NCBI GenBank assembly: GCA_964640155.1
Contig: CAZXEQ010000001.1
Coordinates: forward strand, 456,403-488,402
DNA length: 32,000 nucleotides
Source: an uncultured bacterium
Lineage (GTDB): Bacteria; Auribacterota; JACPWU01
Direction of reading: 5' to 3'
Positions within the stretch are counted from its first letter, which is position 1, and every line of letters starts with the position of its first letter. Shown here piece after piece: positions 1,474 to 27,758 of the stretch. The translations under genes and the position numbers were made by a program. The notes beneath the pieces were generated by a model. It was given only the letters and a program-made list of their open reading frames with translations, had not been told where the DNA came from and searched no databases.

Positions 1474-1842
1474 TTACTTTGCTTCTCCAGCTGCATCTAC
1501 TGCAACCTTTGCATCTGCCAAAGCTGCATCTGTAGCTTTTTGAGCATCAGCGATTGCTGCATTTGCTGCTTCTTGTGCAAACTTCTGTGAGCACATACCA
1601 CACATCACTGTCTCAGCTTTACAAGCAGGGCATGCAACTTTGGTTGCGCCTGTATTGGCTTTCATTTCCATGCCACATGCAGAACACTTGGCATCAGCTT
1701 TAAGAACTTCAACCACAGGCTTTGTAGAAGAAGGAATTGCAACTTTGCAAGCGGAACAGTCAATAGCATAAGAACCTGTTGCGAAAGAAAATGCCATAAA
1801 AAGCCCCAAGGCTACTGCCATCAATTGACGATATGACTTCAT
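1474..1842 (-). CDS. Secreted cysteine-rich protein with four CxxC motifs and an Ala-rich C-terminal tail
   Basis: 122 aa. Signal peptide MKSYRQLMAVALGLFMAFSFATGSYA; CSAC, CSAC, CPAC, CGMC, none followed by His (so not CxxCH heme sites); own terminator. Confidence 0.7.
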   Translation of the reverse strand: MKSYRQLMAVALGLFMAFSFATGSYAIDCSACKVAIPSSTKPVVEVLKADAKCSACGMEMKANTGATKVACPACKAETVMCGMCSQKFAQEAANAAIADAQKATDAALADAKVAVDAAGEAK

Positions 1843-1976
1843 GTAAATCTCCTATCACTTTTTAAATAATAAACTTCTTACTAGCTACTCCCCCAAAGGA
1901 ATAGCGAAGGAAAGATATCAAAAGTCTCTCTAATATTCAATCAAGAAAACAATTCAAAATCATTCAGATAGTATGT

Positions 1977-2087
1977 ATAAAAGTGTGTACTTTATGCGGG
2001 GAGCCCCGCCGAGCGCAATTTTTTATGAGCACGGTGGGGCTGACGAGTGTCAGGCCCTGCTATTTTTTTAAAAGTACACACTTTTAA
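1977..2087 (+). repeat. Family-A GC-rich palindromic element, copy 1 (shortened variant)
   Basis: ataaaagtgtgtacttta...gagcacggtggggctgacgagtgtcaggccctgc...aaagtacacacttttaa aligns with copies at 6512-6638 and 27594-27720. It lacks about 14 nt of the 5' arm. Confidence 0.8.
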
Positions 2088-2157
2088 CCACAACATCATC
2101 ACTTTTAAAAAATACTCAGTTTTATTTTTAAAAATAGTTTACAATATAAGCAAGCAC

Positions 2158-6303: not shown

Positions 6304-6511
6304 CACTCCTCTAACTTCTAATCTCTTATAGTAGCAAGCTTTATACCAATCTAATAATTAAACATAATTATACATAAAACATACTGATAGAGAATGTATT
6401 ACAGAAATAGAATTAATAACATTTTTGAATCCATTGCCAATCATATTGTTCTATATTAGAACATTTACATCTATCTCTTTTGCTTCAAGCCTCTTAGAAG
6501 CAATGTTACAT

Positions 6512-6638
6512 ATAAAAGTGTGTCCTTTATAATTCGGGTGACACTCGGCGGGGAGTTCCACCGTGCGCAATTCTTCATGAGCACGGTAGGGCTGACGAGT
6601 GGCAGGCCCCGCTTCTTAACAAAAGGATACACTTTTAT
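6512..6638 (+). repeat. Family-A GC-rich palindromic element, copy 2 (full length, 127 nt)
   Basis: ataaaagtgtgtcctttataattcgggtgacactcggcggggagttccaccgtgcgcaattcttcatgagcacggtagggctgacgagtggcaggccccgcttcttaacaaaaggatacacttttat. The ends and the internal arms are mutually complementary. Confidence 0.85.
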
Positions 6639-6726
6639 ATACCCAATCTTAGAAGCTATAGATTTCATTATATGATGCATACTTTGAGTCTAAAAGGATA
6701 AAATGAATGGAGGGTGGTGAAGAAAA

Positions 6727-27535: not shown

Positions 27536-27593
27536 AGTCTTTTCTTTCTCTCTAAAGTTCTTTATACTGTTTCCAATGATTTTGGATCTATAT

Positions 27594-27720
27594 ATAAAAG
27601 TATATCCTTTATAAATGCGGGTGATACTTGGCGGGGAGCCCCACCGCGCGCAACTTTTGCTGAGCACGGTGGGGCTGACAAGTGGCAGGACCCGCTACTT
27701 TCAAAAAAGATACACTTTTA
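27594..27720 (+). repeat. Family-A GC-rich palindromic element, copy 3 (full length, 127 nt)
   Basis: ataaaagtatatcctttataaatgcgggtgatacttggcggggagccccaccgcgcgcaacttttgctgagcacggtggggctgacaagtggcaggacccgctactttcaaaaaagatacactttta. Confidence 0.85.
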
Positions 27721-27758
27721 CATACAACATCCTATTTTGAGGTAATGGCAATTTTACT

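Follow-up and report, generated by a model that had tools for sequence, protein, structure and literature searches.

Genomic setting of the repeat copies

The window, a stretch of 32,000 nucleotides from an uncultured Auribacterota bacterium, carries three copies of a short GC-rich element on the same strand (Table 1). Copy 1 lies upstream of a + strand gene (start 2158) encoding a 345-aa HExxH protein, copy 2 upstream of an amrS-like gene (start 6727, +) for a radical-SAM protein of the AmmeMemoRadiSam type and copy 3 upstream of manA (start 27759, +), which encodes a type I phosphomannose isomerase. All three copies are situated in divergent intergenic spacers, 28–78 nt upstream of these starts. 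By Pfam annotation, the other genes of the window are all of a housekeeping kind (synthesis of hopanoids, haem and NAD), and no transposase was present among the window proteins in this annotation.

The three copies are homologous, with a mean column identity of 82% in the alignment, and were recovered as one family by an automatic repeat finder. The 18-mer GAGCACGGTRGGGCTGAC occurs three times in the window against an expectation of 0.01. The GC content of the window is 38%, and the element cores are its strongest GC islands (63–70% GC in 60-nt windows). A preliminary description, made from the sequence alone, had reported three homologous GC-rich copies on one strand, placed in divergent spacers upstream of + strand starts; the alignment, the repeat finder, the 18-mer count and the GC islands bear out the homology, and the context was also confirmed. 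Its remark that the downstream genes are functionally unrelated agrees with their products (an HExxH protein, a radical-SAM protein and a phosphomannose isomerase). The extents given there (1977–2087, 6512–6638 and 27594–27720) mark the right loci but not the right ends: each element is about 10 nt longer on either side.

Table 1. Coordinates and structural features of the element. Positions without a contig label are those of the window.
Feature	Position	Strand	Description
Element copy 1 (w1)	1967-2097	+	131 nt; ends GATAGTATGTATAAAAG ... CTTTTAACCACAACATC; 18-nt internal deletion
Copy 1 left flank	1959-1966	.	ATCATTCA; candidate decayed target-site duplication, 5/8 matches to partner
Copy 1 right flank	2098-2105	.	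ATCACTTT; partner of 1959-1966
Element copy 2 (w2)	6502-6648	+	147 nt; feature under study
Copy 2 left arm	6502-6534	+	
Copy 2 GC-rich core	6535-6611	+	77-nt hairpin
Copy 2 right arm	6612-6648	+	
Copy 2 target-site duplication, left	6494-6501	.	TTAGAAGC, 8 bp
Copy 2 target-site duplication, right	6649-6656	.	TTAGAAGC, exact
Element copy 3 (w3)	27585-27731	+	147 nt; core 27618-27694
Copy 3 left flank	27577-27584	.	TGATTTTG; 6/8 matches to partner
Copy 3 right flank	27732-27739	.	CTATTTTG; partner of 27577-27584
Copy 2 core P2			CGGGU/(C)CCCG; consensus CGGGU/ACCCG
Core P3			CACUCG/CGAGUG
Core 5' internal loop			GCGGGG
Core 3' internal loop between P4 and P3			GA
Copy 2 core P4			AGUUCCACCG.GC/GC.CGGUAGGGCU
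Consensus core P4			AGCCCCRCCG.GC/GC.CGGUGGGGCU
Copy 2 apical loop			GCAAUUCUUCAUGA
Consensus apical loop			GCAAYUUUUNNUGA
L005 flanks			TGAAGGAT left, TGAAACAT right; 6/8 matches
ClpX shared site	L005:533-668 vs L018:2068-2222		also L017:1-70, L019:1-36
DUF2490 shared site	L003:7400-7536 vs L015:1-110		

Architecture and predicted fold

The element is a non-coding sequence of about 147 bp that forms an imperfect palindrome over its full length. It is described as a quasi-palindrome because its left half aligns with the reverse complement of its right half throughout. AT-rich terminal inverted repeats of about 25–30 nt (consensus 5'-GATGTTGTATATAAAAGTGTGTCCTTTAT) surround a 77-nt core of about 68% GC. 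The arm consensus is GATGTTGTATATAAAAGTGTGTCCTTT, and the element ends read 5'-(G/A)AT...ATC-3'. The arms of copy 1 were reported by the repeat finder as an inverted pair of 27 nt with 81% complementarity. No coding capacity was found: six-frame translation and a protein-database search with the five open reading frames across the core gave no protein relative. A peptide-coding reading was dropped, as several frames are open only because the core is free of stop-prone AT triplets and there are no homologues.

Copy 2 was predicted to fold as a single long imperfect hairpin (−52.5 kcal/mol, z = −5.4), and the long hairpin put forward in the preliminary description is thus real. The reverse strand folds about as well (−48.5 kcal/mol, z = −5.4), as a palindrome predicts. 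The stems and loops of the core are given in Table 1; the 5' internal loop, GGCGGGG, hardly varies among the copies. Copy 1 is without the 18-nt segment equivalent to AATTCGGGTGACACTCG (window 1990–1996), whose limits coincide with a pair of GCGGG direct repeats. The loss looks like a slippage deletion, and with it the 5' sides of both P2 and P3 are gone.

Relatives and copy number

A 22-nt core pattern was searched against 185,579 species-representative genomes and returned five copies, all in one MAG, Candidatus Auribacterota bacterium JAYRIK01 (JAYRIK below). This organism is a sister species of the window organism, with 88% amino-acid identity in ManA, at least 90% in several proteins and 81–91% identity in syntenic DNA. 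The window species has copies at six or more dispersed loci and JAYRIK at five or more, in addition to remnants. The loci of the JAYRIK copies are labelled L002–L006, and two syntenic JAYRIK contigs L012 and L014; L001, L013, L015, L016 and L017 are Logan short-read contigs (SRR8893623) of the window organism. Every Logan contig of the window organism that was fetched ends inside a copy, L001 at both ends and L013, L015, L016 and L017 at one, and these ends fall within w2, w3 and the copies at three further loci. The repeat would therefore be of high copy number, present roughly once per 10 kb in 62 kb of window-species DNA. The element ranks among the main causes of assembly breakage in the SRR8893623 sample and is a practical cause of such breaks in short-read metagenomes of this Auribacterota lineage.

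Three incomplete or diverged relatives were seen on contigs of the two species. A remnant consisting of the right arm only (L016:9652–9690, window species) lies directly past the stop codon of an AMP-binding gene. The copy at L016:10226–10292, inside which the contig ends, has its left arm cut to GATGTT and fused to the core. A diverged relative of the core is found upstream of the RNase III gene in JAYRIK (L012:12440–12580; nhmmer E = 2e-4) and has an apex larger by about 60 nt (…GGGGGGGCCCCCATCGAGCGC…GTCGATGGGGGTGAGGAGTGACAGGACCCC…); taken as a whole, this segment shows no unusual degree of structure (z = −0.6). At the JAYRIK locus L002, the longest open reading frame of the downstream membrane protein begins (ATGATAAAACACCC, L002:1498–1514) within the left arm of the element. 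The insertion may have supplied or displaced the start codon of this protein, which, judged by eye from its sequence, we take to be possibly ComEC-like.

Rfam searches at gathering thresholds gave no match over the whole window. When the thresholds were relaxed (E-value mode), three copies matched chance hairpins only, the best being flpD (16.5 bits against a threshold of 40), mir-341 (18.7 against 90) and DicF (16.1 against 48). The preliminary description was right in recognising no known RNA family in the element, as far as Rfam is concerned. Searches of the JGI metagenomes and viral contigs with core patterns gave chance matches only, in DNA of 62–67% GC, and blastn against plasmids and phages gave no match to the element. 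The titles and abstracts searched on Auribacterota contain no description of repeat elements. The family is without earlier description in Rfam or the collections searched and, as a probable MITE, is of an ordinary kind.

Empty sites and target-site duplications

JAYRIK contig L012 is collinear with the window over 23.6–32 kb, and L014 over 0.85–9.7 kb. All three element sites of the window are empty in JAYRIK, with length differences of about 145 nt. The spacer that holds copy 3 upstream of manA measures 223 nt in the window and 77 nt in L012; that of copy 2, upstream of the amrS-like gene, measures 420 nt in the window and 276 nt in L014. The copy 1 site in L014 is likewise without the element. 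The reverse case was found for the JAYRIK copy L004, which occupies a Mur-ligase/AMP-binding spacer: the orthologous spacer of the window species (L016:7798–7940) is empty. Since sites are empty in both directions, the element has been inserted independently in both lineages since their split. With four lineage-specific insertions (w1, w2 and w3, absent from JAYRIK, and L004, absent from the window species), the family appears to be active.

An exact direct repeat of 8 bp borders copy 2 on either side (Table 1); with the preceding TC (6492–6493) it extends to 10 of 10 bp (TCTTAGAAGC). The empty site in JAYRIK holds one related copy of the target, ATAAAGAGC. The exact 8-bp repeat is a target-site duplication. 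The same flank geometry was transferred from copy 2 to w1, w3 and L005, with some freedom in the choice of offset; the matches pooled over w1, w2, w3 and L005 then amount to 25 of 32 positions (binomial P = 3e-8 at p = 0.30 per base). The flanks of L002, L004 and L006 are ambiguous. The duplications TTAGAAGC, TGATTTTG, ATCATTCA and ATGYTTCA have GC contents of 12–38%.

Two sites are filled in both species, one at the ClpX/108-aa gene (L005 versus L018, L017 and L019) and one upstream of DUF2490 (L003 versus L015). At both, the element of the window species is turned round relative to that of JAYRIK. The inversion at the ClpX site includes the arms, and the same 8-bp flank, ATGYTTCA, is found on both sides. 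The orthologous pair shows nine differences in 79 nt and is no closer than non-orthologous pairs. The opposite orientations may reflect either an inversion of the resident element, through recombination between its inverted arms or template switching from one to the other, or a hot spot that was hit twice.

Interpretation as a probable MITE and comparison with known elements

The three GC-rich repeats are most probably recently moved copies of a MITE of about 147 bp in intergenic spacers of an uncultured Auribacterota bacterium. Prokaryotic MITEs are defined (PMC10969869) as elements of less than 500 bp that have inverted repeats of 4–30 bp, are flanked by direct repeats, insert into AT-rich intergenic DNA and give transcripts with stable stem-loops; the copies described here are 131–147 nt long and non-coding, have terminal inverted repeats and a target-site duplication, are present or absent at orthologous sites and are dispersed. 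Coxiella QMITE2, for example, has direct repeats of 7–9 bp and inverted repeats of 23–29 bp (PMC10969869). The element is like QMITE2 and the Correia elements of Neisseria in being small and non-coding, with inverted repeats of about 25 nt and direct repeats at AT-rich intergenic sites (PMC10969869), and like prokaryotic MITEs it shows presence/absence polymorphism between relatives and is predicted to give very stable stem-loop transcripts. It differs from known MITEs in that it has no sequence similarity in any collection searched, its host belongs to an uncultured phylum of the PVC group, its strongly GC-rich centre is better conserved than its inverted repeats and no parent insertion sequence was found. 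A MITE was one of the options named in the preliminary description, and it is the one favoured by the empty orthologous sites, the 8-bp duplication, the terminal inverted repeats and the dispersed copies and remnants in two species.

ERIC/IRU elements of enterobacteria are 127-bp imperfect palindromes with a conserved central inverted repeat, located between genes in either orientation. The present element shares with them a length of about 130–150 nt, a wholly but imperfectly palindromic structure with the centre most conserved and an intergenic position in either orientation, whereas its sequence and host are unrelated and an 8-bp target-site duplication is documented for it. By analogy, its architecture most resembles that of these ERIC-type palindromes.

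The following mechanism is proposed. A DDE-type transposase encoded elsewhere in the genome would move the element in trans, making an 8-bp staggered cut in AT-rich intergenic DNA and so giving rise to 8-bp target-site duplications. The placement upstream of + strand genes would then reflect tolerated insertion into divergent promoter spacers rather than regulation. Any transcript running through the core, and likewise its single-stranded DNA, would form a very stable hairpin, and a secondary effect of this predicted hairpin on neighbouring transcripts is possible. The pairing has been kept, most likely because the palindrome serves the propagation of the element itself or is homogenised between its arms. 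If the repeats are transposon copies, the three GC islands of the window are explained and no longer suggest, misleadingly, a new class of riboswitch or sRNA.

For the parent of the element, the IS256 family provides a lead. ISCth4 and IS256 make 8-bp duplications in A/T-rich DNA and have inverted repeats of about 26–31 bp with a subterminal TGTAAA (PMC7780238). The 8-bp A/T-rich duplications, the length of the inverted repeats and the terminal GA of the element fit such a parent. A T(G/A)TAAA motif lies 9–15 nt from its ends and may correspond to that of the family; it is TGTAAA proper in the right arm of w3 and TATAAA in most other arms. No Transposase_mut gene was seen. Membership is accordingly not claimed, and on these sequence features an IS256-like parent is a lead only.

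Several observations speak against a MITE. No autonomous parent with matching inverted repeats, no solo inverted repeats and no transposase were found in the 128 kb of DNA examined. The core is better conserved than the arms, which is the reverse of a textbook MITE and unexpected for a GC-rich segment in an AT-rich genome. The target-site duplication is ambiguous at the three JAYRIK loci named above, and an excess of + strand G·U pairs, treated below, hints at a strand-specific single-stranded form. Finally, the inversion at both sites filled in the two species is not predicted by simple vertical inheritance. How palindromic MITEs evolve is the subject of three small, testable questions that arise here: why the core is conserved above the arms, why wobble pairs favour the + strand and why orientations are opposed at shared sites.

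Conservation and pairing of the core

Pairwise identity is 82–89% in the cores versus about 40–73% in the arms, where the arm values are lowered by gaps and the JAYRIK core values are partly inflated, since those copies were found with the 22-nt core pattern; without the 22 pattern columns the cores are still 82–86% identical. Distances between cores are star-like and are not sorted by genome. Over 11 copies, 96% of the core stem cells are standard pairs. Compensatory changes were found in three pairs: one has turned from C-G into U-A in three copies, another from A-U into G-C in two, and a third from C-G into U-A in the apical stem of the L018 copy. The compensatory change noted earlier between copy 2 (C6546:G6597) and copy 3 (T27629:A27680) is correct in the alignment.

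Shuffled alignments were used for comparison. The observed paired percentage was matched by none of 500 shuffles, and the compensatory-cell count and the covariation score by one of 500 each, although related sequences can outscore shuffles without any structure. The number of pairs with a compensatory change was reached by 63 of 500 shuffles and is not exceptional. All slid registers score far lower than the true pairing register. The compensatory events are few: about three are independent, and one of them marks a subfamily. Stem cells other than Watson–Crick comprise 13 G·U versus two A·C, or about eight versus two independent events (one-sided p ~0.05). Stem pairing is therefore maintained, with a weak + strand bias. 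The G-T wobbles had been read earlier as arguing for a + strand RNA rather than a DNA cruciform; the bias in that direction stands weakly, and a DNA-level quasi-palindrome could equally keep the pairing. Correction from arm to arm of a palindrome, or a need for symmetric ends, can give the same pattern of pairing without any RNA function.

These data bear on the view that the core acts as a structured RNA with a function of its own (a stabiliser, an insulator, a protein-binding hairpin or an sRNA) under host-level selection, with the MITE arms only as its vehicle, as in an exapted or domesticated MITE. The conservation of the core relative to the arms, the paired and compensatory cells, the predominance of G·U over A·C and the near-invariant internal loop are what such a module would show, and the cores are intact in copies with decayed arms (L002, L003 and the copy at the end of L016). 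The copies show no preferred orientation, however, with two in the sense and three in the antisense direction of co-directional genes, and the corresponding genes of the sister species have no copy beside them. There is no conserved promoter or terminator and no Rfam family; the conservation of the JAYRIK cores is in part a matter of ascertainment, and the few compensatory events could be mimicked by arm-to-arm correction. A host-selected RNA module is therefore considered unlikely. There is a similarly small chance that the 77-nt core is a selected structured module, acting as a + strand RNA or as a single-stranded DNA hairpin with its GGCGGGG loop, that has been spread through Auribacterota by a MITE, stays intact after arm decay and can be flipped in place. 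If so, it would not be junk but a mobile cassette, structural or regulatory in role, that can switch orientation.

Unlikely alternatives: single-stranded transposition and site-specific inversion

REP and REPIN sequences are also dispersed, GC-rich intergenic hairpins, with long hairpins formed from inverted halves, and the element could be a hairpin doublet that is moved as single-stranded DNA by a RAYT or an IS200-type HUH (Y1) transposase. The conserved, imperfect GC-rich hairpin in AT-rich intergenic DNA, the strand asymmetry of G·T pairs and the faster decay of the flanks relative to the hairpin fit such a process. To our knowledge, HUH transposition (IS200/IS605, REP/RAYT) leaves no target-site duplication. 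Copy 2, in contrast, has an exact 8-bp duplication of a target that is single in the empty site, and what was inserted is bounded at its outermost positions by the terminal inverted repeats; a DDE mechanism is favoured by both. The window proteins include neither a RAYT nor a Y1-transposase domain, and no RAYT gene was seen. Movement by an HUH enzyme is very unlikely on this evidence.

Hardly any credence is given to an invertible DNA switch (inverton) worked by a site-specific recombinase on the inverted repeats: opposite orientations in the two species at both shared sites would suit it, but no recombinase gene adjoins any copy, there is no conserved internal promoter, a single orientation is seen at the ClpX site in three samples of the window species (L017, L018 and L019) and multi-copy insertion polymorphism with target-site duplications is the behaviour of a transposon.

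Position relative to genes

Five of the nine distinct sites are divergent spacers, where an element in either orientation lies 'upstream of' a gene of the same sense. The copies located between or after co-directional genes comprise two in the sense (L003 and the copy at the end of L016) and three in the antisense direction (L002, L006 and L015). The orientation relative to genes, which the preliminary description had singled out as a check, is thus unbiased. Promoter and terminator scans gave no promoter or terminator common to w1, w2 and w3. The outward promoter proposed earlier for the right end of copy 2 (TTAACA-16-TATACC) is private to that copy and is not conserved. An intrinsic terminator-like (SPRITE-like) repeat, with a U-tract after its GC-rich stem, was rejected: the tail is only UACUUU, and no terminator-like site was called at w1, w2 or w3. 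Checks by eye set aside a hammerhead ribozyme (CUGANGA is present, with neither GAAA nor a stem II) and likewise HDV-like topology, 4.5S ends and tmRNA ends, none of which fits.

A cis-regulatory leader, that is, a riboswitch or attenuator for the downstream + strand genes, was suggested by the three copies standing close upstream of + strand starts, and by the two GCGGG segments, either of which could pair with the 3' CCCGC in competition with the other. It is contradicted by the empty sites: the orthologous genes in the sister species have no element. The downstream genes are moreover unrelated, some copies lie antisense to or downstream of genes, the cores are as similar as recent repeats, unlike diverged aptamers, and there is neither an Rfam match nor a terminator-like tail. 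Because orientations are mixed, no promoter or terminator is shared and orthologous sites are empty, a leader or riboswitch role is effectively ruled out, with next to no probability left to it, and an sRNA gene family is unsupported. The preliminary description had already thought a metabolite riboswitch improbable, and the manA, amrS-like and 345-aa genes without the element in JAYRIK agree with this. A functional role of the placement upstream of + strand genes is not supported, nor are its readings of the element as a leader or an sRNA family, given the same empty sites, the mixed orientations and the lack of a conserved promoter.

Further observations on the collinear contigs

The comparison with JAYRIK also revealed two differences or similarities outside the element. 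The segment 25182–26290 of the window (L012:1611–2733), about 1.1 kb long, has no called gene in either species and is 91% identical between them, equal to the adjoining coding DNA. It gave no Rfam match and contains no tRNA; a gene missed by the annotation, or a non-coding RNA, may lie in it. Elsewhere in the window, a small Cys-rich gene of 122 aa is present once (window 1474–1842), and the corresponding region of JAYRIK (L014:1261–2111) has two adjacent copies, the second of which was called as 93 aa.
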